Assembly: GCF_044789845.1 (NCBI RefSeq)
Contig: NZ_CP085252.1
Location: forward strand, 224,684 to 248,683
Length of the DNA stretch: 24,000 nucleotides
Origin: Jeotgalibacillus malaysiensis
Lineage (GTDB): Bacteria; Bacillota; Bacilli; Bacillales; Jeotgalibacillaceae
Direction of reading: 5' to 3'
Both the position numbers and the translations under genes were made by a program. Shown here one piece after another: positions 1,315-15,402 of the stretch. Each line of letters opens with the position of its first letter. Positions within the stretch are counted from its first letter, which is position 1. The notes under the pieces were generated by a model. It worked only from the letters and a program-made list of their open reading frames with translations, searched no databases and had not been told where the DNA came from.

Positions 1315-1675
1315 TGACATTCACTTCTTTCTTATGTTCTAGTACAATCATCATTATTTGTCTAATATGTTCATCGTCTAACGAATAAAACGCTAGTTTT
1401 CCTTCTTTTCTATATCTTACAATCCCCTGCTTATGAAGGGTCCTTAAATGATGAGAAGCATTTGCCACCGTAATACCAATAATATTTGCTATATCACACA
1501 CACATAACTCTTCATCTTGACACAAAGCATAGGTAATCTTTGCCCTATTTTCATCCGCAATTGCTTTTAACATTTGGGCAACACTAACAATATCGATTGT
1601 TTTTAAATCACCTTGTATTCGATTGACCTTTTCCTCGTCATAACAAAAAATTTCACAAGTATCTTTCTTATTCAC
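1307..1675 (-). CDS. cadC: ArsR/SmtB-family Cd/Pb/Zn-responsive repressor CadC
   Basis: 122-aa ORF with N-terminal Cys (CEIFC), CVCDIANI metal-site region and the [12 protein letters not shown] winged-helix recognition helix. Its stop overlaps the cadA start (ATGTCTGA, 8-nt overlap), as in classical cadCA operons. Confidence 0.95.
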
Positions 1676-1690
1676 ATTATCACCCCATTG

Positions 1691-1758
1691 ATATTCAAAT
1701 GTTCACTTGAATATAGTATATACCTTCCCTTGGTTAATATTCAAGTGAATATTTGAAT
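1691..1758 (-). promoter_or_regulatory. cad promoter with two CadC-type operator dyads
   Basis: On the minus strand: -35 TTGAAT (1744-1739), 18-nt spacer, -10 TATACT (1720-1715). Dyad 1 is ATATTCAAATGTTCACTTGAATAT (1691-1714), between the -10 and the cadC start. Dyad 2 is ATATTCAAGTGAATATTTGAAT (1737-1758) and overlaps the -35. Dyad 2 is close to the reverse complement of dyad 1, and both resemble the TTCAAATA..TATTTGAA cad operator I recall from pI258. Confidence 0.6.
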
Positions 1759-1787
1759 GAAAAACATAAAATGATTTTTCTAATAGT

Positions 1788-1920
1788 AATTCCCATTAAC
1801 GAACGTTTTAGGGATTTTTTTGCACGCTTATATTTACATAGTTTTGAACTGTTTACCATTCCCTAAACTATTCCCTTTAACTTATTCCCTAAAATTGACG
1901 GTACCCCCGTATTAGGGAAT
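1788..1920. promoter_or_regulatory. Putative res (resolution) region for the adjacent serine resolvase
   Basis: A 30-bp dyad AATTCCCATTAACGAACGTTTTAGGGATT (1788-1817) sits here. Three direct ATTCCCT(A/T)(A/T)A repeats start at 1858, 1870 and 1884, with an inverted copy TTAGGGAAT at 1912-1920. The region lies just upstream of tnpR, the usual position of res subsites I-III in Tn3-family elements. Confidence 0.5.
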
Positions 1921-1944
1921 AATTAATTTCAGGAGGGGAATAGA

Positions 1945-2499
1945 ATGGGGAAAATTTTTGGATATGCTCGAGTTTCTACTCAAGATCAAAATTTAGAATT
2001 ACAAATGGATGCCTTACAAAAAGCTGGTGCAGCTGTTATCTACAAGGAAAAAATGACGGGCACAAAAAAAGAGCGTTTAGAATTAGAGCAACTCTTAAAA
2101 GCAATAAGTGAAGGAGATACAGTGGTTGTCTATAAACTAGATCGTATCTCAAGATCTACCAAGCACTTAATTGAATTAGCAGAAACCTTTGAGGAAAGAA
2201 AAGTGAATTTTGTTTCTATAAGTGACAACATTGATACGTCAACTGCAATGGGACGTTTTTTCTTCCGTACCATGGCAAGTATTGCTGAGTTAGAACGGGA
2301 TATCATCAGTGAACGTACTAAAGCAGGGTTACAATCTGCAAGAATTAGAGGTAGAAATGGCGGAAGACCAATTAAGGATCCAAAATTAGTAGAACGAGCA
2401 TTAAAACTACATGCTTCTAAGGAGTACAGTATAAAAGAGATTTCAGATATGACTGGTGTTAGTAAATCTGTGTTGTATCGAGCTATAGAACGTATATAG
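1945..2499 (+). CDS. tnpR: Serine recombinase, resolvase/invertase family (TnpR)
   Basis: 184 aa. The N-terminus GYARVSTQDQ carries the catalytic Ser motif, with VVYKLDRISRS and a C-terminal HTH (ISDMTGVSKSVLYRAI). RBS AGGAGGGG lies 7 nt upstream. Confidence 0.9.
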   Translation: MGKIFGYARVSTQDQNLELQMDALQKAGAAVIYKEKMTGTKKERLELEQLLKAISEGDTVVVYKLDRISRSTKHLIELAETFEERKVNFVSISDNIDTSTAMGRFFFRTMASIAELERDIISERTKAGLQSARIRGRNGGRPIKDPKLVERALKLHASKEYSIKEISDMTGVSKSVLYRAIERI

Positions 2500-2520
2500 A
2501 AATGAACAGGAGGCATTATC

Positions 2521-5443
2521 TTGTATTTGAGAGCAAGAGAACTACTTACACCTGAACAACGTATAGATTTCATGACAATTCCAGCTGATATTAGCGAGTG
2601 GGAAATAGCTACCTCCTACACTTTATCACCACATGATTTAGAAGTGATTAAACGTCGAAGACGAGACTATAATCGACTTGGATTTGCCGTTCAGTTATGT
2701 CTGTTTCGCTTTCCGGGATGGACATTATCGGATATTAAAGAAATACCTAAGACAGTTTTACTGTTTATTGCCAATCAAATTAAGGTTGACCCCTTAGAAT
2801 TTCAATCATATGCCGAACGGGAACAAACTAAGCATGAACATATGGTTGAAATTCGGAAAGAATATGGTTATAGGAACTTCTCAACAAGAGAATATCGTAA
2901 CATCTCTTCTTCTTTACTAAGCCATGCAATGGAAAATGAGAACTCAATGTATTTGATTAGGACGGCTATCGAAGAAATGAGGAAGCGAAAAAATTATTCT
3001 TCCAGCTATGTCGACTATTGAACGTCTGGTTTGGCAAACACGTCATCGAGCTGAACAAAAAATATATAAGATATTATCGCGGTCTCTATCCTCTTTGCAA
3101 AAGGAAAGTTTGATCCTAATGACGGAGTCTACTCTGGATAGTGGAAAAACACCTCTTGCTTGGTTAAAAGAAATCCCAGGACAATCTTCACCTGATGCCT
3201 TCTTAAAAGTCATTGAACGATTAGAGTATGTGAAAAAACTTGAGTTATCTATTGATTGTAATGACATACACCCGAACAGGCTTCTTCAATTGTCGCGTTT
3301 AGGTGCGCGATATGAACCTCATTCCTTCCGAAGATTTAATGAGACTAAAAAATATGCCATTCTTGTGGCTTATCTCTTAAATCTCAGTCAAGACTTAATT
3401 GATCAAGCCATTGGAATCCACGATCGCCAAATTATGATCTTGCAGTCAAAGGGCCGTAAGGCCCAAGAAGAAATGCAGAGACAAAACGGTAAAACAATTA
3501 ATGAAAAAATCATACAGTTTGCTGACATCGGTGCTGCACTAATAAAGGCAAGAAATGAAGGATTGGATCCGTTTACTACATTGGAAACCGTCATGTCCTG
3601 GGAGAAAATGATTGCATCGGTGGAAGAGGCAAAACAATTATCACGTCCTATCGACTATGATTATTTAGATCTTTTAGAAAGACGATTTTTTTATCTTCGA
3701 AAATATACGCCTACCTTACTTAAATCACTAAAATTTCAATCGACCCAATCAGCAAAACCATTGATAGAAGCACTAGATATTATTAAAAATATGAATGATT
3801 CAGGTAAACGAAAAGTTCCAGAAGGAGCTCCTCTTGGATTTGTCTCTAACCGGTGGCAGAAACACGTATATGACGAGGATGGAAGTATCAATCGACATTA
3901 TTATGAAATGGCAGCATTAACTGAATTACAAAATCATATTCGATCTGGAGATGTATCTGTTCGAGGCAGTAAACAACATAAAGATTTTGAAGAGTATCTA
4001 ATTCCAAAAGAAGAATGGTTAGAAACTGGATTACATCATAATCGCCTTGCTGTAGGCAGTTCTGCTGAAGAATATTTGACCGAAAGAATGGATTCTCTTC
4101 GAAAACGGCTGCAAGCTATGTCCGATAACGTTGATGAACTAGAGGGTGTCAGTATAAATAAGGGGAAAATTCGCATTGACCGTCTTGAAAAGGATACTCC
4201 AGAAGAAGCCAAGACGTTTAGTTCATCCCTATACAGCATGTTGCCACGGATAAAACTAACAGATCTGCTAATGGAAGTTGCAAGTTGGACAGGTTTTGAT
4301 GAACAATTTATTCATGCTTCTTCAAGCCGTCCTCCCAAAGGAGAGGAAAAGTCGATCTTATTAGCCACGATAATGGCGCTGGGTACAAATATTGGCTTAA
4401 CAAAGATGGCAGATGCTACACCCGGAATTACCTATCACCAAATGGCTCATGCTTCTCAGTGGCGTCTTTATGATGATGCGATGAATAAAGCTCAGGCAAC
4501 ACTTGTGAATTTCCATCATCAGCTTGCTTTATCTTCATATTGGGGAGATGGAAGTACTTCCTCTTCAGATGGTATGAGAGTACAAGTTGGCGTGTCTTCT
4601 CTACATGCAGAATCAAATCCTCATTATGGTTCTGGTAAAGGAGCTACGATTTATCGCTTTACAAGTGATCAGTTTTCTTCTTACTACACAAAAGTCATTA
4701 ATACCAACGCTCGTGACGCAGTTCATGTGATAGATGGGTTGCTGCATCATGAATCTGAATTGAATATTGAAGAACATTATACAGACACGGCTGGTTATAC
4801 CGATCAAGTTTTTGGACTGAGCCATCTACTTGGTTTTCGTTTTGCACCTCGCCTTCGAGATCTGTCTGATACTCGACTATATGTAATAGAAAAACCTGGT
4901 GAGTTTCCAACAATAGAAAAATTAATACGAGGGCGTATTAATACAAAGGTTATTCTAGAAAACTATGATGATGTTTTACGTCTAGCCCACTCCATTCGGG
5001 AAGGGAAAGTTTCTGGTTCACTCATTATGGGAAAGTTGGGGGCCTATTCAAGGCAAAATCGTTTGGCTACAGCACTCCGTGAAATGGGTAGAATTGAAAA
5101 AACAATCTTCATATTAGACTATATTTCAAATGAAGCAATACGTCGTCGAATTCAACGAGGGTTAAACAAAGGGGAGTCTATGAATGCCTTAGCACGAGCC
5201 TTATTTTTTGGAAAACGAGGTGAACTAAGGGATAGAGCGTTACAAGACCAGCTTCAACGTGCAAGTGCATTAAATATCATCATTAATGCTATCACTGTAT
5301 GGAATACAGTTTATCTCACAGAAGCAACAAAAGTTCTAAGTGAAAAAGGGATACTACGAGAGCAAATGATAAAACATATTTCACCATTAGGATGGGAACA
5401 CATTAATTTCTTAGGAGAGTATACTTTTGACATAAAAAAATGA
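2521..5443 (+). pseudogene. tnpA: Tn3-family transposase TnpA split by a +1 frameshift in an A6 run (2988-2993)
   Basis: ORF 2521-3021 (DUF4158-like N-terminus, TTG start 7 nt after AGGAGG) and ORF 3008-5443 together give about 977 aa, the normal Tn3 TnpA length. Removing one A from CGAAAAAAT restores ...EEMRKRKIILPAMSTIERLVW..., the conserved IILP..T.ERLV junction. The C-terminal part carries the DDE region. Confidence 0.85.
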
Positions 5444-5536
5444 CAGGACTCAACTCTTTAAGACCATTAGATCGATAAACTCCAGAGCCGGTACCCTTAG
5501 AGTAAAGGATATCGGTTTTTATATGGTAAATAATGT

Positions 5537-5575
5537 CTTAAAGTGGGTTTTGTGTCAAAATGTTGGCGGTACTCC
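5537..5575 (-). repeat. Tn3-family terminal inverted repeat (right end)
   Basis: The minus strand reads GGAGTACCGCCAACATTTTGACACAAAACCCACTTTAAG. It has the GGGG-type outer end and TAAG inner end. It is very close to the Tn4430 IR as I recall it (GGGGTACCGCCAGCATTTCGGAAAAAAACCACGCTAAG). It lies 94 nt after the tnpA stop, oriented inward. Confidence 0.75.
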
Positions 5576-5728
5576 ATTATGATCTAAATAATGACCATAT
5601 CATACTGAGATTTTCATAAAATACAAACTCAGTTCTGCTAATGAATTCATTTTGTTAAAAGTCAAAGAAATGCTACCATTCCTCCGCCAAATATGCATAT
5701 TTATGAGTTAAGGTGAAAGCAAATACTA

Positions 5729-7249
5729 ATGAAAGAAGGGATTGAGATAATGCAAAAAAAATTGCTAAAAGGAACCTTATCTATTTTAGCTGCAATAATC
5801 TTATCGGCTTGCACAGGTGATAGTGGGGGAATGAACTCTAGTATGATGATGGATAATGAAGATAATCCTGATCAAGGTATGGATCAGGATGGTATGAATG
5901 AAATGATGGATCATGGGGAGGTACCTTCACTTGCATCTTCTGAAGGAGTAAATGAGTTGGTGATTCCTCCATTATTAGAAAAGCAAAAAGGAAAAAACTA
6001 TGATTATGAAGTGACGGCACAAGAAGGGATCACTGAATTTTTCGAAGGAATCTCAACTGAGACTTACGGATATAATGGTGATTTGCTTGGTCCCACACTG
6101 AAAATAGAAGAAGGAGAGAGTGTGAATGTTAAAATTACAAATGACTTAAATGAACCAACTACATTTCATTGGCATGGTTTGGAAGTTGCCAGTAAAATAG
6201 ATGGTGGACCCAGTGATGAAATTCAACCAGGAGAAAGCCGGATCATTACATTAGAAGCTGATCAACCAGCTGCTACATTATGGTATCACCCACATGTTCA
6301 TGAAATGACTGCTGAACAAGTATTTAGAGGACTCTCAGGAATGTTAATCATTGACAATTCCATTAATTCAGATTTGGAGATTCCAAACGAATATGGGGTT
6401 AACGATATTCCGCTTATTTTTCAAGACCGTCTTTTTGACGAAGATAAGCAATTAGATTACGACAATCTCATGAATGTAGACGGCACTTTGGGTGACGTTT
6501 CCATGGTGAACGGAACAATCAATCCAAAGATGACTGTCACAGAACCTATTATGCGATTTCGTTTATTAAATGGATCAAATGCACGTAATTATACATTTCG
6601 CTTAAGTAATGGTGATAATTTCACTCAAATTGCCTCTGACGGCAGCTTACTCGATGAGCCAGTTGACCGTAAAGAACTTACACTCGCTGCTTCGGAGCGT
6701 GCTGAAATTCTTATAGATTTTTCGAAATTAACTGAAGAGGAATCACTTTCTATCATTAATGAAGAAGGTGTAGTGCTACTCCCATTTGATGTGAAAGATA
6801 CTGATTCAACAGCGGGCTCTATTAAAACATGGACCACTGATGAGCCGTTTTTGACAGATGAGGAGAAAGAAATGCCTGTTACTAAAAACATTGAATTATT
6901 TGGAATGATGGATATGGTATCTATTAACGGAAAAAAATTCGATGCTGATCGTATTGATTTGCGTCAGGAGCAGGGCGTGACAGAAGTGTGGGAAATTTAT
7001 AATAAACCGGATATGATGGGTGGTATGGTACATCCATTCCACATTCATGGTACCCAGTTCAAAGTAATTTCCCGTGACGGTGAAGAAGTGGAAGAAAGTG
7101 AACAAGGCTTTAAAGATAGTGTTGCAGTTGAACCTGGTGAAAGAGTAAAATTGCTCGTCACTTTTCCTGAAAAAGGGGTTTACGTATTCCATTGCCATAT
7201 TTTAGAACATGAAGATAATGGCATGATGGGACAGATTGAAGTGTATTAA
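5729..7249 (+). CDS. Multicopper oxidase (CueO/laccase-like), lipoprotein with Met/His/Asp-rich N-terminal linker
   Basis: All four MCO copper motifs are present: FHWHGLEV, WYHPHVH, HPFHIHG and HCHILEHEDNGMMG. A signal peptide with lipobox ILSAC is present. The true start may be ATG 5750 (MQKKLL...). Confidence 0.9.
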   Translation: MKEGIEIMQKKLLKGTLSILAAIILSACTGDSGGMNSSMMMDNEDNPDQGMDQDGMNEMMDHGEVPSLASSEGVNELVIPPLLEKQKGKNYDYEVTAQEGITEFFEGISTETYGYNGDLLGPTLKIEEGESVNVKITNDLNEPTTFHWHGLEVASKIDGGPSDEIQPGESRIITLEADQPAATLWYHPHVHEMTAEQVFRGLSGMLIIDNSINSDLEIPNEYGVNDIPLIFQDRLFDEDKQLDYDNLMNVDGTLGDVSMVNGTINPKMTVTEPIMRFRLLNGSNARNYTFRLSNGDNFTQIASDGSLLDEPVDRKELTLAASERAEILIDFSKLTEEESLSIINEEGVVLLPFDVKDTDSTAGSIKTWTTDEPFLTDEEKEMPVTKNIELFGMMDMVSINGKKFDADRIDLRQEQGVTEVWEIYNKPDMMGGMVHPFHIHGTQFKVISRDGEEVEESEQGFKDSVAVEPGERVKLLVTFPEKGVYVFHCHILEHEDNGMMGQIEVY

Positions 7250-7275
7250 GCAGAAAACTCAATATAGTACAAAGA

Positions 7276-7309
7276 GTCTCCAAAGGTTAAGTTTTCACCT
7301 TTTGGAGAC
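7276..7309 (+). terminator. Probable intrinsic terminator after the oxidase gene
   Basis: GTCTCCAAAGG...CCTTTTGGAGAC hairpin (one bulged T) followed by a T-rich stretch. Confidence 0.5.
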
Positions 7310-7430
7310 CCTTTGGATTATTTGCTTTATTATGCCTTGAAAACCTTACATTTAATTAATCAAAAAAGTTGGCTTATCATCGAGGCAGAGGCTAACTTAT
7401 TTTTTGATTGTGCGAAGTTTGGGTAATAAT

Positions 7431-7476
7431 AAAAAGCTTGCAGTGTCCCATCAATTATGAGCACTGCAAGCTTATT
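7431..7476 (-). terminator. Intrinsic terminator (works in both directions) after the DUF1541 gene
   Basis: Perfect AGCTTGCAGTG / CACTGCAAGCT stem flanked by an A-run on the left and a T-rich run on the right, 9 nt past the stop of the minus-strand gene. Confidence 0.7.
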
Positions 7477-7484
7477 TATTTCAT

Positions 7485-8123
7485 TTATTCCGGCTCTTTT
7501 AACTCTTCCTCTGTAATCCATTTATGATTAGTCACTTCATCTCCGTTTTCTAAAGTAAAGTCAACCATATAAACAGTTGTCTCCTCGGCAGTATCAATTT
7601 CAGCCGTTGCACCTTCCATACCTTCCATGTGTGAAGCTTCTACCTTTACTTCATCACCTTTTTGGTAAGACTCTTCCTGTCTGTCAGAAATTTCTTCATG
7701 AATAACCCATTTATGATCTTCTACTCTATCTCCACCATCGGTTGGGTCATAAGAAATACTATAAGCTACAGTGTCATAGGCTCCTACAACTGTAGCTTCT
7801 GCACCCTCCATGCCTTCCATATGTGATGCAGTGATTATTGCTGTGTCACCAGCCTCAAACTTCGGTGCCTCGGCCTCTTGCAGACCTTCAGGAATTTCAC
7901 CTGAACCGGACATATCCATACCTGAATGGTCCATCTCCTCGGTAGAATCGCTTTGTTCTGAAGAATTATCTTCGTCCATTGATTCCATTTCATTTTCAGT
8001 TTCTTCGGTCTCAGAATCATTCACTGCGCCAGATTCTGCTCCTTCATTATCTGCACAGGCAAATAAAATTGTACTTGCTGCCAGTGAAAATGTACCTATC
8101 ATCAGTCTTTTACTCAATGCCAC
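7485..8123 (-). CDS. YdhK/CopL-like lipoprotein with two DUF1541 domains and an acidic Met/His-rich linker
   Basis: GTG start 7 nt after GGGAGGT, with lipobox LFAC. Two repeats are present: ASHMEGMEGAEATVVGAY...HKWVIHEE and ASHMEGMEGATAEIDTAE...HKWITEEE. This tandem DUF1541 architecture matches B. subtilis YdhK and S. aureus CopL, a Cu-binding lipoprotein. Confidence 0.8.
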   Translation of the reverse strand: MALSKRLMIGTFSLAASTILFACADNEGAESGAVNDSETEETENEMESMDEDNSSEQSDSTEEMDHSGMDMSGSGEIPEGLQEAEAPKFEAGDTAIITASHMEGMEGAEATVVGAYDTVAYSISYDPTDGGDRVEDHKWVIHEEISDRQEESYQKGDEVKVEASHMEGMEGATAEIDTAEETTVYMVDFTLENGDEVTNHKWITEEELKEPE

Positions 8124-8150
8124 TAATATAACCTCCCAATATCGTTATAT

Positions 8151-8167
8151 AAATGGGATACCCATTT
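8151..8167. promoter_or_regulatory. Perfect 7-3-7 palindrome AAATGGG-ATA-CCCATTT, candidate operator
   Basis: It lies 28-44 nt upstream of the GTG start of the DUF1541 lipoprotein gene, inside its presumed promoter region. Confidence 0.3.
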
Positions 8168-8258
8168 TTTGTGCAGAAATGATGGAGGATTGAAAATAAA
8201 ATTAAAATTTTTTTGTGATAAAACACATTATAAACAAGGAGGCTATGTCGATGTAATT

Positions 8259-9203
8259 TCAATTGACTTGGAAAATACCTTCCATTCCTTGTTCCTTATG
8301 GTTTGGTAATGAGCAAAAGAAGGGAACTTGAGTAGCTTTTTTTGCAATTAATTGGACCGATTTCGATTCACCAGGTTTCAAATGTATATGTACTTTATTT
8401 GAATTAGTTCCATGATTATGTGTATTACTTAAGTTATTAAGGATTTCTATTGTATTATTTTCAAATTGAAGGTCATGATCGATTGTTCCGGTGTTAGTCA
8501 GTACTATCTCAGTTAAAGAGCCCTTTTGCAATTGTATCTTTGAAGGATAGTAAGTATATTCGTTCATTTTCACCTCTACTTTTTCTGATATGCTGGATTG
8601 TGGTTCTTTTGTGGTATGATTTTCAGATAAAATTTGATTGTTATTTACATGGGGGTGGCTTTTAATTTCATTTATAAAAAATAAAGGTCCAGTCATTTCA
8701 ACTATAAAAAACAAAATTATAAATATGACCCCTGCTTTTAATGGGTTAGAGACAGCATTTATCAATAATTTTCTAGTGCTATTTACTTCATCTCCGATTA
8801 ATCTAATAACCAACGCTGAAATAAAACAATGACTAAAGAATAAAATCTTTACCATAGAATCGTAATTTTCACTTTGAATCATAGATCCCAGCATAACCCC
8901 CATCATTCCGGCCATAACACCTGATAACATCCCATCCAGTAAGGCTACTTTCCCTATTCCGTTTCCAGGGATTGCTCCAACCACTAAACCGGTCATCATG
9001 CTGTAAACCGTTGCAATAAATAAGTTGTCTGAAAAATATATTCCTAAAATGGTTCCAATTATTAATCCTGTTGACATCGCCGTAGACATGGAAATCATCA
9101 TACCATTCATTTTGCTAATTGTTTTATGGGTATACATTAAAGCAACAATCGTTCCATACAATATAAATGACAGGGCAATAATCACGAGCAATCCTACATT
9201 CAA
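8259..9203 (-). CDS. Polytopic Met-rich membrane domain fused to a C-terminal cupredoxin (type-1 Cu) domain
   Basis: About 180 aa of Gly/Met-rich transmembrane segments (GMLSGVMAGMMGVMLGSM) come first. The C-terminal beta-rich domain carries type-1 Cu ligands: H in TIDHDL and FFCSLPNHKEQGMEG (C-x4-H-x4-M), the F.C..P.H...GM.G cupredoxin signature. Confidence 0.75.
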   Translation of the reverse strand: MNVGLLVIIALSFILYGTIVALMYTHKTISKMNGMMISMSTAMSTGLIIGTILGIYFSDNLFIATVYSMMTGLVVGAIPGNGIGKVALLDGMLSGVMAGMMGVMLGSMIQSENYDSMVKILFFSHCFISALVIRLIGDEVNSTRKLLINAVSNPLKAGVIFIILFFIVEMTGPLFFINEIKSHPHVNNNQILSENHTTKEPQSSISEKVEVKMNEYTYYPSKIQLQKGSLTEIVLTNTGTIDHDLQFENNTIEILNNLSNTHNHGTNSNKVHIHLKPGESKSVQLIAKKATQVPFFCSLPNHKEQGMEGIFQVN

Positions 9204-9274
9204 TAGATCTAATTCCTTCCTGTATTTAATTTTTTGGTTAATTTATTTTTATCATATGTAAAAAACACCTTTAC

Positions 9275-9291
9275 ATACCTAGTATGGGTAT
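9275..9291. promoter_or_regulatory. CsoR-type operator-like dyad ATACCTAGTATGGGTAT
   Basis: ATACC-N7-GGTAT lies about 70 nt upstream of the start (9203) of the cupredoxin-fusion gene. It resembles the ATACC...GGGGTAT CsoR operators recalled for Firmicutes copZA promoters. Confidence 0.35.
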
Positions 9292-9545
9292 ATTATTATA
9301 TTTATAATAGGTTCCAATAATTGATCAAATAATCTCTTACAATAAAGAGTGTGCTTTTTCGCTAACGAAATTTAGTTTGGTAATAAAAGGTTTTCGACAT
9401 GAGCTAAACTGAATTGAATAATAAACGCGTTAGATCTAGAAGATAATTGAAAAAGTATGTATTTGTTGAATTGTATACAGTAGATTTGTAATAACGGTTC
9501 AGAAGTGATTATTTGAAAAAATTATAATGGCGAGGAGGATATAAA

Positions 9546-9755
9546 ATGGAGAGTGTATCACTAAAAGTTACAGGTATGTCTTGTCAGAATTGTGTAAAAT
9601 CTATTGAAAAAAACCTTGGTGAGATGCAGGGTGTTGAGAAAGTTTCTGTTTCACTTCAAGAAAACATTGTCAATGTAAACTATAATGAAGATGAGGTTTC
9701 TTTAGATCAAATGCAAGTTGTAATAGAAGATCAAGGTTACGAAGTTAATAAATAG
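9546..9755 (+). CDS. copZ: Copper chaperone CopZ (HMA domain)
   Basis: 69 aa with the GMSCQNC (MxCxxC) motif. RBS GAGGAGG lies 6-7 nt upstream. Confidence 0.9.
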   Translation: MESVSLKVTGMSCQNCVKSIEKNLGEMQGVEKVSVSLQENIVNVNYNEDEVSLDQMQVVIEDQGYEVNK

Positions 9756-9790
9756 TATCTTAGAATTTGTTCGAGCCCGTTAGAATAACA

Positions 9791-9839
9791 AAATAGTCCA
9801 CAAGGAGCAATTGCTACTTGTAGACTATTTTGTTTTTTT
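9791..9839 (+). terminator. Intrinsic terminator after copZ
   Basis: AAATAGTCCACAAG...CTTGTAGACTATTT long hairpin (one mismatch, with an inner AGCAATTGCT palindrome) followed by TGTTTTTTT. Confidence 0.8.
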
Positions 9840-9934
9840 GTGAGAGAATGCATCATTTCTCGATAAATTTACTCTATTATGTTCATGTGATTGAACCAGA
9901 ATGAATGACTATATTTATAAAGGAGATGATGATT

Positions 9935-10183
9935 ATGATGAATGGCTCTGGCATGATGGCGGGTGGAATGTGGCTCGGTATACTGCTTGTTGGTTTGGTG
10001 GTCATACTTGTGATATTCGCATTTTTTAAACTGCTTAATTCTAGAATAGACGGTGATTCCGCTAAGCATCAAAATGAAGGAGATTTTTCTTTGATCATCC
10101 TCAATGAAAGGTTAGCGAAGGGTGAGATACAAGTAGAAGAATACAATCATCTGAAAGGTATAATCCTTAAGTCAGAAAAATAA
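9935..10183 (+). CDS. Small membrane protein with C-terminal SHOCT domain
   Basis: Preferred start is ATG 9935, 9 nt after AGGAG. It has one TM helix (MWLGILLVGLVVILVIFAFF). The C-terminus LNERLAKGEIQVEEYNHLKGIL matches the SHOCT pattern (L..R.A.GEI...EY...K..L). Confidence 0.7.
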   Translation: MMNGSGMMAGGMWLGILLVGLVVILVIFAFFKLLNSRIDGDSAKHQNEGDFSLIILNERLAKGEIQVEEYNHLKGIILKSEK

Positions 10184-10270
10184 AAAAATAAAAGTATTTT
10201 AGAAATATTGCTGAAATATTGAACAAATTCAGCATTGACAATCACAGTAAGCAAAGTTGGGTGAAATGCA

Positions 10271-11005
10271 GTGAATGATTTGTTTTGGCAAGTCAGTAAT
10301 ACTTTCAGTGAACCATTTTTTGAACTGTTCCATCAGGCGCAAAGCTTTCCGATCATTGCTGCTTTTTTTCTTGGTATTGTCGGTGCATTGGCACCCTGTC
10401 AGTTCACAGGTAATCTGGGGGCTATCGCAATATATGGTAATCGTTCAATTCAGAACAAAATCGCGTGGACTGAGGTTTATTTTTTTATAGTCGGTAAAAT
10501 CTTTGTATTCTCACTCCTTGGTTTTGTTGTCTGGCAGTTTGGAAATGAAATCGAACAAAGCCTGATTACTTACTTTCCATGGCTCAGAAGGATCGTCGGA
10601 CCAATATTAATTGTCATTGGATTATTTTTGTTAGGCATCTTTAAATCACGTTTGGGAGTTCAATTCATAAGACTTCCAGAAAGGTGGTTTAAAAGGGGGA
10701 AGTTAGGTGCTTTTTTAATGGGTGTTAGCTTTTCTCTTGGGTTTTGTCCAACAATGTTCGTTTTATTTTTTGTCACGCTGCTGCCATATTCATTTACTGT
10801 TAGTTACGGCTTTATATTGCCTGCCATATTCTCAGTGGGAACATCACTTCCATTGTTGATTGCGTTATTTTTATTATGGTTTTTTGACATTGAGAATAGA
10901 AACTTAAAAAAGAATGGGAGAAAAATCGGAAACTACGTACAGAAAGCTGCTGGGATATTTATCATTTTTTTGGGGATAATCGATATCGCTACTTACTGGG
11001 TGTGA
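10271..11005 (+). CDS. DsbD/CcdA-superfamily (DsbD_2-like) polytopic membrane protein
   Basis: 244 aa with about 6 TM segments. One conserved Cys sits in each half (GALAPCQF and LGFCPTMF), as in CcdA/DsbD-type thiol-disulfide transporters. GTG start with a weak RBS. The functional assignment is tentative. Confidence 0.6.
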   Translation: MNDLFWQVSNTFSEPFFELFHQAQSFPIIAAFFLGIVGALAPCQFTGNLGAIAIYGNRSIQNKIAWTEVYFFIVGKIFVFSLLGFVVWQFGNEIEQSLITYFPWLRRIVGPILIVIGLFLLGIFKSRLGVQFIRLPERWFKRGKLGAFLMGVSFSLGFCPTMFVLFFVTLLPYSFTVSYGFILPAIFSVGTSLPLLIALFLLWFFDIENRNLKKNGRKIGNYVQKAAGIFIIFLGIIDIATYWV

Positions 11006-11173: not shown

Positions 11174-11202
11174 TTGATTAAACTTTTTTTCAAACCTACA
11201 AT
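11174..11202 (+). promoter_or_regulatory. Candidate sigma-A promoter TTGATT-17-TACAAT
   Basis: -35 at 11174-11179 and -10 at 11197-11202, about 100 nt upstream of the 407-aa ORF. Confidence 0.35.
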
Positions 11203-11245
11203 AACTTGTTAAAGAATGATAAAGTAGTTTAGATATGGAATTTCA

Positions 11246-11288
11246 ACACCCGTTCGCTTATAATTTATATAAGCGAACGGGTGTTTTT
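11246..11288 (+). terminator. Very strong terminator-like hairpin inside the 5' leader of the 407-aa gene
   Basis: Perfect 17-bp stem ACACCCGTTCGCTTATA / TATAAGCGAACGGGTGT with a 5-nt loop, then TTTT. It ends 18 nt before ATG 11306 and 5 nt before the GGAGGG RBS. Confidence 0.7.
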
Positions 11289-11305
11289 GTTTGGAGGGAT
11301 TTTCA

Positions 11306-12529
11306 ATGGAAGTATCAATTAATAATTTGGATTTTAGTAACATAGATAAAAAATTAAGCCATTTATCTAGAGAGCAAATTGTAGAGTTAATAACAGCATA
11401 TTATGATGGAGAAAAAATTAAGGATCTCTTGTCAGAATATGAAATAAAAACAACCGCATCAAATTTAGTGAAAATATTCCCTTCAGTGTTAAATAATGAG
11501 TATTGTATAAAATGTGAATCGCCTATTGTTATACATCTAGAATCTAGATCGTACTCAAATTATTTTACAAATCATCATGAATATTGTTCTAGTTGTGGAC
11601 ATCAAGAAACATCTTTTTGTAGTTGCGAATTTTGTAAAAAAGAAAGAATGGAAGCAAAAAGATTAGAGGAAGAGCGCCAAAAAAGGTTAATAGAGAAGAA
11701 AAGACAATTATTATGTGATCATTATGAAGAAGATAATTGGGAGATGATTTTAGAGACAGATTTAAGCTTAGAAGATAGACTTTATTTAGCGGTTATATTA
11801 CGAGGTGCTCTTTCAGAAAATACAAGCTATATTGAACCTCTAGAAAAAATTAAAGAGAAAATAGCACCTACAACAGAATATGAGAGAGAGATAATAAAGA
11901 CATTAACAGGTAGAAACATTTTAGTTCCTAGCTTGAAATCAAAAGTAGATGACTTTGAAATAGAGTTTGTATCAGAAGATGAAGAACAATATAAAATTGC
12001 TTACTATATCTATAAAGTTCATTATCGTTTGAATGTCATGCCAGAAGATGACGACTACGATGCTATGATTAAGCGGTTAATGTATCCTCATTTGAAAGAT
12101 GAAGAAGGTTTCAAAGATTTTTGTTACGGGATATGGAGACAAGTTGCACTTAATGAATGCTTACAGTATTTGTTATATCAAATGCATAAAGTGGGCTACA
12201 CATTTAATCCTGGGGAGAAGACGATAAAAGTTTTTGAGGAACTTTTAGAACATTTCTCAGTCTCGCAGATTTATAGCATTATTTATCGATCAGTTGCTAA
12301 CAGCACTCAAAGATATCAAGCTAGAGAAATCACAAAAATACACGCTCAGAATTCAGTCATAGCTTCATGTGAAAGTTATGGTCAACGAGCAATAGCGCAG
12401 GGGTGGAAATTAACTCATTATGCACGCTTAAGAGATTTACCGGAGACGTATATAAGCAATGTATTATTTACATCAATTATGCAAATAGCAGAACTGGGTT
12501 TTTCAGAAAAACCTACGCCAGATTTCTAA
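11306..12529 (+). CDS. Hypothetical 407-aa protein with a multi-Cys (zinc-ribbon-like) cluster; function unknown
   Basis: ATG 11306 lies 8 nt after GGAGGG (the track ORF starts at 11291). Cys cluster: C67xxC70, C94xxC97, C105xC107xxC110. A charged KRLEEERQKRLIEKKRQ helix follows, then a C-terminal region of about 280 aa with no motif I recognise. The gene is AT-rich like the neighbouring RT gene. Confidence 0.75.
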   Translation: MEVSINNLDFSNIDKKLSHLSREQIVELITAYYDGEKIKDLLSEYEIKTTASNLVKIFPSVLNNEYCIKCESPIVIHLESRSYSNYFTNHHEYCSSCGHQETSFCSCEFCKKERMEAKRLEEERQKRLIEKKRQLLCDHYEEDNWEMILETDLSLEDRLYLAVILRGALSENTSYIEPLEKIKEKIAPTTEYEREIIKTLTGRNILVPSLKSKVDDFEIEFVSEDEEQYKIAYYIYKVHYRLNVMPEDDDYDAMIKRLMYPHLKDEEGFKDFCYGIWRQVALNECLQYLLYQMHKVGYTFNPGEKTIKVFEELLEHFSVSQIYSIIYRSVANSTQRYQAREITKIHAQNSVIASCESYGQRAIAQGWKLTHYARLRDLPETYISNVLFTSIMQIAELGFSEKPTPDF

Positions 12530-12616
12530 ATGAAATGAGGAGTTCATATGGCTAAACGTCAAATAGGTTGAACTAATGCAAAAAATCTCTCGGCACATTT
12601 AGGAAGGCGAAACATC

Positions 12617-12656
12617 GGGACGTGTGTTACCCCCAACACGCGCCCCTGATTTTTAC
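12617..12656 (+). terminator. Probable terminator of the 407-aa gene
   Basis: GGGACGTGTGTT / AACACGCGCCCC stem (one mismatch, one G-U), loop ACCCCC, followed by TGATTTTT. Confidence 0.5.
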
Positions 12657-12702
12657 ATCCTTTTTTTAGTATAAAAATCTTCTGTGCGGAAATAGTTAGA
12701 TT

Positions 12703-13620
12703 TTATAAATTGTTTATTTTCGTGTTTATTGATTGAAAAGGGTTAGAACCTTCAACATAGTCAAAAGCTATTAAACATCCTTTTAATTTTGAGATTAATA
12801 ACGTGATATGTTCTGAATCTTGTTTTAACAATGCAGCTTCTAATTCATTATCTAAATCAATTATTTTTTTTCTTAATTTATTCGGAACTTTCATAGTTCT
12901 GTTTTTTAAGATAACGCCAGTTACATTAATTGGCCTATTATAGCTATGAACTGTTTTTTCGGGGTTTACTTGAAAATTATAACTCTCGATGATTCTGATG
13001 ACTTTGCTTTTAAAATGTCTTCCGATAGGCTTATTTGCAGAAAATGTAATATCATCAACATAAACTGTCATAGTAATATTTTCTTGCTTTGCATATTGGT
13101 GAATCTTATCAAACATTTGATAGTAAGATAAAATTGAAAGTAGTGCACTTGTGGGGTAGCCCTGGGGTAAATGTCTATGATTGTGATTAGGTAAAGGTTC
13201 GGTAGTGAGCAGTGTATATATTTTTGCTATGTCAGCTGGCATCTTCATTGCATTTCTAAAAAAGGAATATACATATCTTTCATTTGTAGAGGGATAAAAA
13301 TTTGTTATATCAATCATAAGAAAACATTTATGATCTATATGTGCATTAGCATTGGTTACATAACTTTTTCCTTTGACTCCACCATTAATGTAGTCTGGTA
13401 ATTTAATACTAGATAAATTTCTATTGATCTTTCTGAGGATTCGTTTATATCTGGGTTTTGGAGGGAAAATTGTTCTTTTTTTTTGACCAATTTTATCAAC
13501 GTATGATTTTGTTGAAAAATATTTGTCGATATCTTTAAGTTCATAGATTTTTATTGACAGTAATTCTGAGAGAAACTTTTTATTACTTACCTTGTATAAA
13601 AAGTGCTTTTGAATGTCCAT
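12703..13620 (-). CDS. Retron-type reverse transcriptase, stand-alone (305 aa, no fused effector domain)
   Basis: The motif series aligns with retron RTs such as Ec86. KKRTIFPPKPRYKRILRKI matches R.I..P....K..Q. GGVKGKSYVTNANAH matches NAxxH. FLMIDITNFYPS, LPQGYPTSALLS and the catalytic YVDDITFS are present, followed by NPEKT and the retron-typical VTGVIL. RBS AAAGGTGA lies upstream of ATG 13620. Confidence 0.9.
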   Translation of the reverse strand: MDIQKHFLYKVSNKKFLSELLSIKIYELKDIDKYFSTKSYVDKIGQKKRTIFPPKPRYKRILRKINRNLSSIKLPDYINGGVKGKSYVTNANAHIDHKCFLMIDITNFYPSTNERYVYSFFRNAMKMPADIAKIYTLLTTEPLPNHNHRHLPQGYPTSALLSILSYYQMFDKIHQYAKQENITMTVYVDDITFSANKPIGRHFKSKVIRIIESYNFQVNPEKTVHSYNRPINVTGVILKNRTMKVPNKLRKKIIDLDNELEAALLKQDSEHITLLISKLKGCLIAFDYVEGSNPFQSINTKINNL

Positions 13621-13645
13621 CTGATCACCTTTAGTTTAGTTAGAT

Positions 13646-13954
13646 TATAATTAAAGGTAGAGCCGAATAGTTCAAAGAACCTTAAAATTAAACTTGATAA
13701 TTTGTATAATTGAAACAAAGTCAAATTTAATAATTTTAAAAAAGGTTCAATGGAAAGGATAAATGCAAATAACTTAACCGGATAACTGTCAATTAAGTTA
13801 TAAAATTTACTACCTTTCTTTTTATTCCTATCACGTCGACTTACACGAGTATTCATATGGATGCCCCCTTAAAAGTAGTAGGCGTTATTACGCCCCCTCT
13901 GCATTACTTTAAAGGGCTTCGGAGAAATAAATCGACCAGCTCTACCTTAATTAA
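13646..13954 (-). ncRNA. Putative retron msr-msd-like non-coding RNA
   Basis: The minus-strand transcript carries a long-range inverted repeat. The 5' arm is TTAATTAAGGTAGAGC (13954-13939) and the 3' arm is GCTCTACCTTTAATTATA (13663-13646). These give 10 perfect bp plus 5 more across a 1-nt bulge, and the 3' arm ends 25 nt before the RT start, as for retron a2/a1 repeats. G residues follow the 5' arm (TGGTCG). Three internal hairpins are present: 13916-13866 (11/12-bp outer stem plus GGCGT/ACGCC inner stem), 13801-13769 (9-bp stem) and a long AT-rich hairpin at 13748-13677 (about 21 bp with bulges). Confidence 0.4.
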
Positions 13955-14137
13955 CCAAGAAACCTCTGCTTATCTTGTAGAAGTAATCTCCCAAATAACA
14001 AGCGATATCCTTCTCGGTGGTGCGCCAGTTCGTTGCCCTGAGCGCAGTTGCGCTAGGAGCCGTATTGGGCACAAATTTCCGCCTTAAAGGCAATATAAAA
14101 CCTGCAGAGTAATTTCCTGCTAAATACTCGTGGTTCT

Positions 14138-14166
14138 ATTTTAGTATACAATACTTTTTTTGGCAA
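14138..14166 (-). promoter_or_regulatory. Candidate sigma-A promoter TTGCCA-17-TAAAAT reading toward the RT locus
   Basis: -35 at 14166-14161 and -10 at 14143-14138 on the minus strand. It is the best promoter match upstream of the RT and putative ncRNA. Confidence 0.35.
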
Positions 14167-14219
14167 CTTTAGTATTTTATAAGTTAATTGGAAAGGTATG
14201 AGCTTTTTGAATTATTAGC

Positions 14220-14757
14220 TATCTAAGTGATACAGTTGTATATGTGGACGTATATTTTCATCTGCTTGTTGAAAAGCTGAAGCATTTTACAACGAATATG
14301 ATTATCCTGACAGGCGCTTTGAGCAAAGAATGAATTTTTCGAACTGAGTTCCAGAAGCTTTCCTCTATTCCTAATCATGGGGGATAGAATCATCCTTGCA
14401 ATAGGTAAGCATGCGGGTGAAGGCTTTGACAATCCAAGGCTCGATACGATCTTCCTGACAATGTCCGTCTCCTGGAAAGGCACTCTTGCACAGTATGTCG
14501 GACGCCTGTACAGAGCATACGAAGGGCAAGAGTCTGTGGAGGTTTATGAATCATTGTTCCTGTGTTGAACACAACACCCACACAATTTTACTTGTTTATA
14601 TAACCAAAATGAATTGAGTGTGATTTTATTATGACACAGGGATATTCACAAATTACTAAATGGGAAATTATAGTGATATTTTAAAGGGATATAAATCGCT
14701 TGGTTACTTGACGGTGGAGGAAGCGAAGAAAGAGAAGAAGCAAATGAAGTTGTTTTA
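14220..14757 (+). pseudogene. 3' remnant of a DEAD/DEAH (superfamily 2) helicase gene with an in-frame stop, a frameshift and a MITE insertion
   Basis: Pieces read ...VDVYFHLLVEKLKHFTTNMIILTGALSKE*, then IFRTEFQKLSSIPNHGG*. After a frame change they read DRIILAIGKHAGEGFDNPRLDTIFLTMSVSWKGTLAQYVGRLYRAYEGQESVEVYE (helicase C-terminal motifs V-VI). Past the repeat comes ...ILKGYKSLGYLTVEEAKKEKKQMKLF*. The N-terminal two-thirds of the gene are absent. Confidence 0.6.
14555..14647 (+). repeat. MITE-like repeat, type 2, copy 1
   Basis: Terminal inverted repeats are TCCTGTGT...ACACAGGGA. It is about 85% identical to 18494-18585 and has an internal terminator-like hairpin (degenerate in this copy). 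It interrupts the helicase remnant. Confidence 0.75.
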
Positions 14758-14786: not shown

Positions 14787-15191
14787 CTAACTGAAGAATG
14801 AAAATGGGTGAATACGCTCAACACGCAGCCTTTTTGATATTTTGTTAGCACCGTTATCGAGTATATAGAATGAGCTTAAAAATAACCCCTCTGAGTTAAG
14901 CTTAATGGGCAAAATCACATGATCATTCAATACTTTATAAAGTTCAACAGTACCGGGTTCTTTGGGATTTTGACCTGCGTAATCAGGAAGCGAGATCATG
15001 TCGGGTATCTTCTCGTGATAAGTCATAAAGTCATCCCAATGACCTTTTTTCTTCAAATGCTTGAGTACACCGGGAGGCATATGAACTTCCAGGCTTTTGT
15101 ATTGTATTTGATAGTAATCTGTAATCGTCTGAGGTATAAATCCGACGGTTTGAGTGGTAGTAGCGTAAGGGTTTACAGAGATGATGGACAT
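14787..15191 (-). CDS. Hypothetical 134-aa protein
   Basis: Intact ORF with ATG start and GGAAGGA about 12 nt upstream. It contains LKHLKKKGHWDDF, which faintly recalls small phage/toxin-associated nuclease-fold (PBECR-type) proteins; this is unverified. A second copy of its last 12 codons occurs at 18620-18655. Confidence 0.55.
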   Translation of the reverse strand: MSIISVNPYATTTQTVGFIPQTITDYYQIQYKSLEVHMPPGVLKHLKKKGHWDDFMTYHEKIPDMISLPDYAGQNPKEPGTVELYKVLNDHVILPIKLNSEGLFLSSFYILDNGANKISKRLRVERIHPFSFFS

Positions 15192-15265: not shown

Positions 15266-15402
15266 CCTTAAATTGACACAAAGATTATCTGCAGGGCGGC
15301 AATCCTGATCTCTGGTAACTATCTCAATGATAGCGCGTGGGGAACCTTTCCCACCTCAGATAACCTCTGTGGTATTCATTAGTTTATTCAATCATTCTTG
15401 TT
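15243..15402 (-). ncRNA. Candidate structured small RNA or cis-regulatory leader (about 160 nt), family not recognised
   Basis: It is bounded by a near-consensus promoter and an intrinsic terminator. A 15-bp closing stem pairs 15371-15357 with 15291-15277 and encloses three hairpins (15354-15337, 15333-15319, 15307-15292), giving a cloverleaf-like four-way junction. The two non-Watson-Crick positions of the closing stem are G-U on the minus strand but A-C on the plus strand, which points to a minus-strand RNA. Confidence 0.45.

Follow-up and report, generated by a model that had tools for sequence, protein, structure and literature searches.

A probable compact type VI-family retron variant without a helix-turn-helix gene, as read from a Jeotgalibacillus malaysiensis locus and its relatives in Bacilli

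Introduction

Two recent preprints have described the type VI retron family and the way it works. Type VI operons run in the order non-coding RNA (ncRNA), small protein (SP, the toxin), Cro/C1-type helix-turn-helix (HTH) protein of 91–110 amino acids (aa), and reverse transcriptase (RT) (Zhang et al., bioRxiv 10.1101/2025.10.22.683967). Here, we analyse a stretch of 24,000 nucleotides (nt) from Jeotgalibacillus malaysiensis (assembly GCF_044789845.1, contig NZ_CP085252.1, positions 224,684 to 248,683 of the forward strand), referred to below as ‘the window’ and numbered from its first letter. Positions 12608–14222 of its minus strand carry what is, at a probability that we put at about three in four, a compact type VI-family retron in an HTH-less variant, made up of a hybrid RNA, an SP, and an RT. 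The family itself is thus known; the HTH-less Gram-positive architecture, which is not described in the literature searched, would be a new variant of it.

In Retron-Vpa2 of Vibrio parahaemolyticus, msr-msd and the SP coding sequence (CDS) form one ‘hybrid RNA’, from which multicopy single-stranded DNA (msDNA) is nearly absent at rest and builds up with phage recombination or anti-RecBCD proteins. Translation of the SP requires the msDNA, the ribosome-binding site (RBS) is sequestered, a role for a 7-nt direct repeat has been hypothesised, and the HTH protein represses reverse transcription, its loss being toxic (bioRxiv 10.1101/2025.10.22.683967). In Retron-Sen3, the SP is produced constitutively and the HTH protein serves as its antitoxin (Garcia-Rodriguez et al., bioRxiv 10.64898/2026.04.27.721009); long-range pairing between ncRNA and SP has also been reported, together with an HTH gene in only ~78% of 158 type VI entries (bioRxiv 10.64898/2026.04.27.721009). 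The ~22% of entries without an annotated HTH are neither described nor analysed in the same literature, and no mention of type VI members from Bacillota was found in the literature searched.

The reverse transcriptase

The RT gene, which has its own RBS (13621–13632), encodes the complete motif series that a preliminary description of this DNA had read in it, namely NAxxH (as NANAH), LPQG, YVDD, NPEKT, and VTG, and its product matches Pfam RVT_1 (E 3.9e-17). The retron character proposed in that description is borne out by the PADLOC family models: RT_VI scores 249 bits (E 1.3e-74) and covers profile positions 3–266 of 279, the runners-up being RT_III-A (134 bits), RT_V (102), and RT_IV (84.8), and the 25 best PADLOC hits are retron RT models throughout, with RT_VI far ahead. 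By comparison, RT_VI gives 255–269 bits for the canonical type VI RTs that we fetched (each with an HTH gene) and 227–231 bits for the closest HTH-less relatives. These models place the RT in the type VI lineage of retron clade 3, and the suggestion of an undescribed system is to be abandoned, as the RT falls in a described type. The protein is 100% identical to a J. malaysiensis protein annotated as ‘reverse transcriptase family protein’; the next relatives in the searches run are only ~42–45% identical to it.

A small open reading frame upstream of the RT

The preliminary description saw no gene co-directional with the RT and about 600 bp upstream of it without a credible open reading frame (ORF). 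That region does contain one: an 89-aa SP ORF on the same strand, with AAGGGGG 7 nt ahead of its ATG and a 34-nt overlap with the RT start (coordinates of this and all other features are given in Table 1). In its predicted product, a cationic N-terminus (net charge +6 over the first 25 aa) precedes hydrophobic helices, and a single-sequence AlphaFold2 (AF2) model is all-helical.

An equivalent small ORF, 71–123 codons long, ends at or inside the RT start in every one of 15 leaders examined among the nearest relatives, all from Bacilli. Most of these ORFs begin with a cationic segment (net +5 to +11 in the first 25 residues), they share hydrophobic helical segments and a C-terminal S-x-L/F-x-Y motif, and a Shine-Dalgarno sequence stands at canonical spacing in all loci. 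In Atopostipes (L019:3731-4795), Alkalicoccobacillus (L024:3755-5020), and Enterococcus gilvus (P0006), the small ORF is joined in frame to the RT. By a back-of-envelope estimate, a random 75-codon ORF at such AT content would arise with a chance of ~0.002 per lineage. A cationic start followed by hydrophobic sequence is likewise the design of canonical SPs in the ‘Large’ type VI lineage. The conserved partner of the RT, judged by this retention of position and pattern, is the small upstream ORF and not the convergent 407-aa gene discussed below, and the earlier option of an RT and ncRNA acting alone had overlooked it.

A run of seven T residues precedes the RT ATG in the Listeria, Psychrobacillus, and Atopostipes group.

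Absence of the HTH gene across a clade of Bacilli

Relatives of the RT were sampled at 86 loci, with ~4 kb of flank on each side where the contig allowed, of which 22 are nearest and 64 distant. A custom hidden Markov model (HMM) built from nine canonical HTH proteins of distant loci found no HTH gene in the window or in any of the 22 nearest loci, and detected one immediately ahead of the RT in ~47 of the 64 distant ones; 13621–14222 of the window contains no HTH ORF. In the distant loci, the canonical layout can be seen, an SP-sized ORF being followed by an XRE-type HTH gene (~100 aa) that abuts the RT. Represented among the nearest loci are Virgibacillus, Bacillus, Paenibacillus, Schinkia, Streptococcus mitis, S. 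oralis, Listeria, Exiguobacterium, Psychrobacillus, Atopostipes, and Alkalicoccobacillus, and 18 unique Bacilli sequences, that of the window included, form an exclusive clade in a neighbour-joining tree, which is a rough one without type IV or V outgroups.

A local loss of the HTH gene in the window was considered and rejected, the absence being clade-wide (22 loci, at least 10 genera). As judged from this distribution, the HTH-less architecture is inherited and maintained. The preliminary description had allowed for an RT of a described type whose usual partner is simply missing; the type VI HTH is indeed absent, in the window and throughout the sub-clade, and on this point the earlier reading of something undescribed is partly borne out, since no such variant is described in the literature searched.

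A second HTH-less clade of type VI-like RTs was seen in Clostridia (L030, L042, L045, L054, L056, L057, and L065), where a single ORF of ~65 aa lies directly upstream of each RT, from ~230 to 30 nt upstream.

The leader RNA

The structured RNA that the preliminary description placed upstream of the RT is borne out by folding (z = -4.9 for 13600–14200), and its elements are listed in Table 1 in the order of the presumed transcript; the leader measures roughly 280 nt. The 5'-terminal segment pairs with codons 2–5 of the SP (duplex energy -16.2 kcal/mol), and in the relatives, a -10-like hexamer is found at the same distance upstream of this segment. The msr-like hairpin is retained with altered stems (GCTATT/AATAGC, GTTGG/CCAAC, GTCAA/TTGAC, and GCTTA/TAAGC in relatives). 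The msd-like region that follows, which would serve as template by analogy with Retron-Vpa2, lies between elements of conserved order and spacing: the a1-to-DR1 distance is 102–158 nt in 14 of 15 relatives (270 nt in Alkalicoccobacillus, L024) with no conservation of the sequence between, and the distance from direct repeat 1 (DR1) to the ATG is 113–149 nt in all 15, with the same order of elements. The fold of 13960–14112 has z = -2.55, and the a1-to-DR1 segment, folded alone, closes on CUCUGC:GCAGAG.

Downstream of DR1, the leader box and the 3' part of the SP CDS show compensatory changes, e.g. GGTAGAGC/GCTCTACC vs GGCAAGAG/CTCTTGCC. The strands of the anti-RBS/RBS helix vary in sequence among relatives and retain their pairing, and the stem of the adjoining G+C hairpin changes on both sides, from GGGCG/CGCC to GGAC/GTCC, GGCT/AGCC, GGGGC/GCCCC, and GGAAGT/ACTTCC. 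When the riboregulator is folded alone, the RBS is paired and direct repeat 2 (DR2) is unpaired in a loop. An equivalent arrangement of repeats and hairpin is seen in canonical type VI loci of Bacteroidota, with GGCAGG present twice and its second copy running into a G+C hairpin just before the SP start.

Table 1. Features of the retron locus and of the neighbouring module (positions in the window).
Feature	Position	Strand	Evidence
Promoter-like site: TTGCCA (14166–14161), 17-nt spacer, TAAAAT (14143–14138)	14138–14166	-	consensus scan, 10/12 matches
5'-terminal segment CCACGAGTATT, pairing with SP codons 2–5 (13844–13853)	14123–14133	-	perfect 10-nt inverted repeat
a1 box CTCTGC, complementary to DR1 and DR2	14104–14109	-	duplexes, covariation
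msr-like hairpin GCC-TTTAA-GGC, then GG	14081–14091	-	conserved with altered stems
Variable G+C-rich stem-forming region, presumed msd (reverse-transcription template)	13970–14075	-	location between msr hairpin and DR1
DR1, GCAGAGG, 3' edge of msd-like region	13963–13969	-	repeat and a1 complementarity
Leader box TTGGTTAATTAAGGTAGAGCTGG, pairing with SP 3' end (13639–13665)	13936–13958	-	duplex -26.1 kcal/mol
Anti-RBS strand GCCCTTTAAAGTA, pairing with 13863–13877	13905–13917	-	fold, cognate test
DR2, GCAGAGG (13896–13902), in internal loop of RBS helix, running into G+C hairpin (13878–13897)	13878–13902	-	fold
RBS strand TACTTTTAAGGGGGC with SP Shine-Dalgarno	13863–13877	-	duplexes, fold
SP ORF, 89 aa, presumed toxic effector	13587–13856	-	ORF scan, position kept in relatives
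SP 3' coding part pairing with leader box; encodes the only conserved SP peptide motif, S-x-L/F-x-Y	13639–13665	-	
Retron RT, 305 aa, YVDD intact	12703–13620	-	PADLOC RT_VI, Pfam RVT_1
Independent mobile module, outside the retron	11207–12607	+	~90% DNA identity to copies in two other genera
Module: end starting with TGT		+	
Module: hairpin	11245–11285	+	
Module: 407-aa gene	11306–12529	+	
Module: tnsA 5' stub, ~58 nt	12550–12607	+	

Covariation of the pairings

In MAFFT alignments, the helix arms are out of register, being shifted by 1–2 nt between sequences, and therefore the pairings were assessed by anchored-window duplex energies and permutation and not by a covariance model: cognate and non-cognate combinations were compared across 14 x 14 loci (Table 2). 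The pairings covary. The three that involve the SP region or its RBS give the smallest p values, and the two control combinations give none of note. A pairing outside the model, that of the leader box with the SP 5' region, also reached p ~0.006 in the same test, so the weaker values for a1/DR1 and a1/DR2 are to be read cautiously. The three short boxes vary jointly: a1, DR1, and DR2 read CTCTGC/GCAGAG/GCAGAG in the group of the window, TCTCGC/GCGAGA/GCGAGA in Streptococcus, CCCTGC/GCAGGG/GCAGGG in Listeria, and CCTTGC/GCAAGG/GCAAGG in Psychrobacillus.

Table 2. Mean duplex energies (kcal/mol) of cognate and non-cognate segment pairs, with permutation p values.
Pairing	Cognate	Non-cognate	p
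5' end / SP 5' region	-10.1	-6.3	~2e-4
Leader box / SP 3' region	-19.2	-13.2	~2e-4
Anti-RBS / RBS	-14.3	-10.1	~2e-4
a1 / DR1	-11.4	-9.6	~0.002
a1 / DR2	-12.3	-10.8	~0.001
Control: 5' end / SP 3' region	-7.9	-8.1	0.61
Control: a1 / SP 3' region	-5.6	-5.1	0.14

A proposed mechanism

The geometry of the window is that of Retron-Vpa2, with DR1 at the msd edge and DR2 in a loop, and we therefore propose that translation of the SP is gated by complementary DNA (cDNA). Transcription from the promoter-like site would yield one structured hybrid RNA that comprises a1, msr, the msd-like template, DR1, and DR2, and that also carries the RBS-sequestering helix and the SP CDS, whose 5' and 3' ends would pair with the leader. 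In the uninfected cell, this structure would block SP translation. Upon phage infection, cDNA (msDNA) copied from the msd would accumulate; since DR1 forms the 3' edge of the msd, the cDNA would begin, at its 5' end, with the complement of DR1, and this could then anneal to DR2, identical to DR1, in the RBS-helix loop. Bound there, the cDNA would open the helix, a presumably toxic SP would be translated, and abortive infection would follow. Without an HTH protein, restraint would have to come from the additional RNA pairings (5' end with the start region, leader box with the SP 3' part) and possibly from the RT itself, which we consider a candidate because the SP and RT genes overlap and are fused in some relatives.

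Whether the locus also represents a distinct minimal retron subtype of Bacilli, ~1.5 kb long with two genes, restraining its toxin by RNA alone and joining that toxin to the RT by translational coupling or even by fusion, is a suggestion to which we would give somewhat less than even odds. We hold with similar reserve the particular form that such restraint would take, i.e. occlusion of the start codon by the RNA 5' end, sequestration of the RBS, and a three-way a1/DR1/DR2 switch opened by cDNA.

Comparison with described retrons

Retron-Vpa2 resembles the window in its RT family (by HMM), in a single structured transcript that holds msr-msd and the SP CDS with the RBS and start region in stems, in the pairing of the far end of the SP region back to the leader, in a short direct repeat placed both at the msd edge and in the RBS-helix loop, and in an SP with a cationic N-terminus and a hydrophobic helical C-terminus. 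Unlike Retron-Vpa2, the window has no HTH gene between SP and RT and derives from a Gram-positive bacillus; its SP is longer (89 aa; 71–123 in the clade), dissimilar in sequence, and overlapping the RT or, in relatives, fused to it; and the extreme 5' end of its RNA pairs in addition with SP codons 2–5.

With the Retron-Sen3/cl2075 lineage, the window shares a type VI RT, long-range pairing between ncRNA and SP, and an SP CDS set in a conserved RNA framework. Sen3, however, has an HTH antitoxin, and the 3' arm of its long-range pairing follows the SP stop, whereas that of the window lies inside the SP CDS. Type IV retrons (Retron-Eco6/Ec48, RT clade 3) likewise combine an RT, a hydrophobic or membrane-type effector, and an ncRNA, but the RT of the window fits RT_VI far better than RT_IV, and type IV retrons encode their effector, a larger two-transmembrane protein, in a separate gene, whereas the small ORF of the window is embedded in the ncRNA transcript.

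The convergent 407-aa gene and its Tn7-like module

The gene that faces the RT across a spacer of 173 bp (12530–12702), as the preliminary description had it, encodes 407 aa from an ATG at 11306 (412 aa from a TTG). That its product could not be placed in a family holds after searches of Pfam, PADLOC, NCBIfam, and PHROG, all negative; neither Pfam nor NCBIfam assigns it to a TnsA–E or TniQ family. The protein has 68 homologues in Bacillota, and among 35 homologues, C67/C70/C94/C97 are invariant and an H99/C105/C107/C110 cluster is near-invariant. Its AF2 model is confident (predicted local distance difference test score 90.5) and consists, in order, of an N-terminal helical region, a beta-rich region with the cysteine pairs, a long helix, a mixed alpha/beta segment (~residues 150–245), and a helical C-terminal domain. 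A Foldseek search of the model against the PDB returned nothing significant, with partial resemblances to small winged-helix DNA-binding proteins, and a profile search of PDB sequences with the alignment gave weak zinc-ribbon hits (E at least 0.07). In our own reading, sequence and model would accommodate an N-terminal HTH and a zinc ribbon, and the alpha/beta segment may be a winged helix, a label taken from those insignificant PDB matches.

In Neobacillus, a homologue immediately follows glmS and precedes tnsA-tnsB; in Bacillus pumilus, too, the gene comes immediately after glmS; and in Staphylococcus, it stands after a Tn554-like set of three tyrosine recombinases and DUF6262 and before a type I restriction-modification (R-M) system; on plasmids, the gene is solitary. 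The module as a whole (11207/9–12607) is 90.7% identical in DNA to Neobacillus L007:5902-7301 and 89.8% identical to B. pumilus L009:5903-7222. The three copies share a left boundary that starts with TGT, 25 nt after the glmS stop in B. pumilus, and copies elsewhere begin 25–68 nt downstream of glmS. TnsA and TnsB Pfam domains follow the module in Neobacillus; in the window, glmS is absent and only a tnsA stub is left. Identity with Neobacillus runs 78 nt beyond the 407-aa stop into the start of tnsA, where the window reads MAKRQIG, a stop, further homologous sequence, and then diverges.

From these comparisons, we conclude that the 407-aa gene belongs to a truncated Tn7-like element that targeted glmS, and that it is the gene nearest the end of that element; it stands beside the retron by rearrangement, as a mere neighbour. 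The module resembles Tn7-like transposons in its TGT start after glmS and in the genes that come next (tnsA and tnsB in Neobacillus, the tnsA 5' end in the window). In canonical Tn7, no gene is known to lie between the right end and tnsA. Unlike canonical Tn7, the module has the 407-aa gene in that place, and homologues are also found with the Tn554-like set and singly on plasmids. The family may have gone unrecognised as an end-proximal part, or as a regulator, of mobile elements, Tn7-like ones among them.

Several further observations concern this module. The hairpin to the left of the 407-aa gene is real (18 pairs, a 5-nt loop, and a T-run after it) but does not mark the cassette boundary that had been assigned to it; that role was rejected, as the hairpin lies inside the conserved module and shows compensatory changes between copies (CACCCG/CGGGTG, CATCCG/CGGATG, CACTCG/CGAGTG). 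Its centre is TATAAT-like (GCTTATAATTTATATAAGC) and its T-run comes directly before the RBS; an RNA attenuator is one possibility, a palindromic operator for the 407-aa protein another. On the plus strand at 12612–12641, where homology to the Neobacillus tnsA ends, a G+C-rich imperfect hairpin (GGGACGTGTGTT...AACACGCGCCCC) is followed by T-runs and is probably the terminator of the 407-aa transcript, although a terminator scan did not flag it. The Neobacillus tnsA (L007:7240-7300) has an in-frame TGA after codon 14 (MAKRQIGWTEAKIS, stop, YIKEGRGQG...), and that Tn7-like element may be defective too.

Weighing the readings

A number of points weigh against the reading of this locus as a compact type VI-family retron. 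The promoter is a sigma-70-like consensus match only, and the transcript start near 14133 is a prediction. Rfam gave no match to the leader, whether at the gathering threshold or with E relaxed to 5. RNAalifold on the MAFFT alignments of the riboregulator returned 0 pairs, which we attribute to the misregistered arms, and a column-pair scan gave no consistent diagonal; the covariation is read from inspection and from a permutation test of our own, which neither corrects for phylogeny nor is of the R-scape type. In both retrons studied, HTH loss is toxic or the HTH is an antitoxin, and an HTH-less system therefore needs another restraint. Finally, the SP has no detectable sequence similarity to the known SP clusters (cl2075, cl2760, cl3272, and cl3897; PADLOC SP_VI) or to any family: SP_VI matches a Bacteroides SP (E 3.9e-31) and neither the SP of the window nor that of the relative L003, hhalign, comparing the SP alignment with seven other canonical SPs, gave a probability of 0.5%, Pfam and PADLOC returned sub-threshold noise for the SPs, and a homology search of a 5.8-billion-cluster protein database, from which the SP itself is absent, found no match. 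The Streptococcus SP copies differ at 22/17/20 sites by codon position, with no clear purifying selection and with a confounding indel. The coding status of the SP is supported by ORF conservation, RBS, and physico-chemical pattern, without help from substitution rates.

Such a lack of homologues and annotation, and of an excess of third-position changes, would suit a locus of RT and ncRNA only, in which the 89-aa ORF is untranslated and its conservation a by-product of constraint on RNA structure; moreover, the two best-conserved SP motifs (N-terminal NTRMNR and C-terminal SxLxY) fall exactly on segments engaged in RNA pairing. We nevertheless regard this as unlikely. A frame of 71–123 codons stays open in every lineage although the DNA is AT-rich and its sequence has turned over almost completely, the canonically spaced Shine-Dalgarno is specifically hidden by an elaborate structure, the pattern of charge and hydrophobicity is conserved, three lineages have fused the ORF to the RT, and the experimentally toxic SPs of canonical type VI retrons share the design. 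Somewhat less credible still is the view that a canonical type VI retron lost its HTH gene and decayed into a non-functional remnant, left between a tnsA stub and a beheaded helicase gene where the DNA has been rearranged. It would fit the gene fragments on both flanks, the need for the HTH for viability or repression in Vpa2 and Sen3, and the state of two relatives (an RT N-terminus that appears disrupted in L026 and a probable frameshift in L027); against it, the RT of the window is full length with every motif, its SP ORF, RBS, promoter-like site, and RNA pairings are all intact, and the HTH-less layout is common to the 22 loci of one clade.

Two readings that reach beyond type VI retrons carry very little weight. 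The RVT_1 domain is common to group II intron RTs, DRT/UG and Abi defence RTs, and those of diversity-generating retroelements, and could by itself indicate any of them. The NCBIfam scores, however, are far under the curated cut-offs (group II intron RT/maturase TIGR04416, 27.7 bits vs 300; Drt2, 31.3 vs 390; Drt3a, 34 vs 200), the PADLOC retron models are on top, neither an intron RNA nor another Rfam family was found, and the protein has merely 305 aa, without a maturase or extra domain; membership of another RT class is accordingly close to negligible. Scarcely better placed is the idea, raised in the preliminary description, that the convergent 407-aa zinc-ribbon protein works with the RT and its RNA in a novel defence cassette of two genes that were acquired together. 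In its favour, the genes lie next to each other and converge, the 407-aa family is uncharacterised with no significant PDB fold match, its genes are often found in mobile or defence contexts (e.g. before the Staphylococcus type I R-M system), and both CDSs are lower in GC than the window: the AT-richness noted earlier holds for the coding sequences (GC 0.286 for the RT, 0.267 for the SP, and 0.314 for the 407-aa gene vs 0.362 for the window) but not for the spacer (0.393) or the RNA leader (0.455). Yet a 407-aa homologue occurs at 0 of the 86 RT loci and an RT at 0 of 8 loci with 407-aa homologues (6 kb on either side), and three plasmid copies have no RT annotated nearby, which speaks strongly against the 407-aa protein as the effector of this RT. 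Nor is there a single acquired unit: the module is ~90% identical in DNA to its copies and the RT only 42–45% identical in protein to its nearest relative, so the two genes have different histories, a tnsA stub lies between them, and the RT clade has a conserved partner of its own in the SP. INDEPENDENCE of the 407-aa gene with respect to the retron is demonstrated by the lack of co-occurrence together with the module identity.

Genomic surroundings

To the right of the retron, directly upstream of its presumed promoter, lies the truncated helicase gene that had been recognised earlier, a C-terminal remnant of ~60 aa (14377–14568, plus strand). In a 73-aa conceptual translation (the 63-aa ORF 14377–14568 plus upstream codons), residues 13–68 are 64% identical to the C-terminus of DEAD/DEAH helicases (E 1e-19); Pfam gave no match to the remnant. 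Beyond it is a 134-aa ORF (14787–15191, minus strand) with a PBECR3 domain, a phage Barnase/EndoU/colicin-like nuclease domain, and stump and ORF together suggest a decayed defence or mobile region. A skipping-rope RNA (RF02924) follows at 15284–15364 on the minus strand (Rfam 60.5 bits vs a gathering threshold of 36.7, E 1.8e-12), and spore-germination genes are found further right. To the left of the 407-aa module, a Tn3-family transposon region (1307–11005) contains an ArsR regulator, a resolvase (1945–2499), a transposase split into a DUF4158 ORF (2521–3021) and a DDE_Tnp_Tn3 ORF (3008–5443), and a copper cargo of multicopper oxidase (5729–7249), DUF1541, a cupredoxin membrane protein, a CopZ-like 69-aa ORF (9546–9755), and DsbD_2 (10271–11005).

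Relatives of the retron are found in defence contexts, inside a type I R-M operon in S. mitis and beside a methyltransferase/ResIII pair in Schinkia. In S. mitis and S. oralis (L004:4735-7152, also L005, L006, and L017–L023), the SP-RT pair lies within the type I R-M locus in the order hsdR, two small genes, SP, RT, hsdS, a 192-aa gene, and hsdM, with the end of the RT overlapping the start of hsdS by 20 nt. Related RTs were also found on P2-like phages.

Significance

For annotation, the tempting pairing of the RT with the 407-aa gene is removed, and the 407-aa family is flagged as a component of mobile elements. Rule-based defence annotation likely calls loci of this kind lone RTs or misses them, because the HTH is absent and the small ORF is unmatched.

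The two preprints on type VI retrons reach different conclusions, and in both the HTH protein is essential, either as a repressor of reverse transcription or as an antitoxin. Here, a whole Gram-positive clade, including S. mitis, S. oralis, Listeria, Bacillus, Virgibacillus, Exiguobacterium, and Jeotgalibacillus, retains the RT, the hybrid-RNA layout, and the embedded small ORF without an HTH gene, which raises the question of what restrains the toxin when no HTH protein is present. The model in which msDNA opens a riboregulator has so far been a hypothesis for Retron-Vpa2 alone (bioRxiv 10.1101/2025.10.22.683967). The Bacilli clade offers a natural minimal system for the proposed cDNA-triggered riboregulator, and, if its restraint is indeed by RNA alone, the covariation of DR1, DR2, and a1 would be independent evolutionary support for that model.

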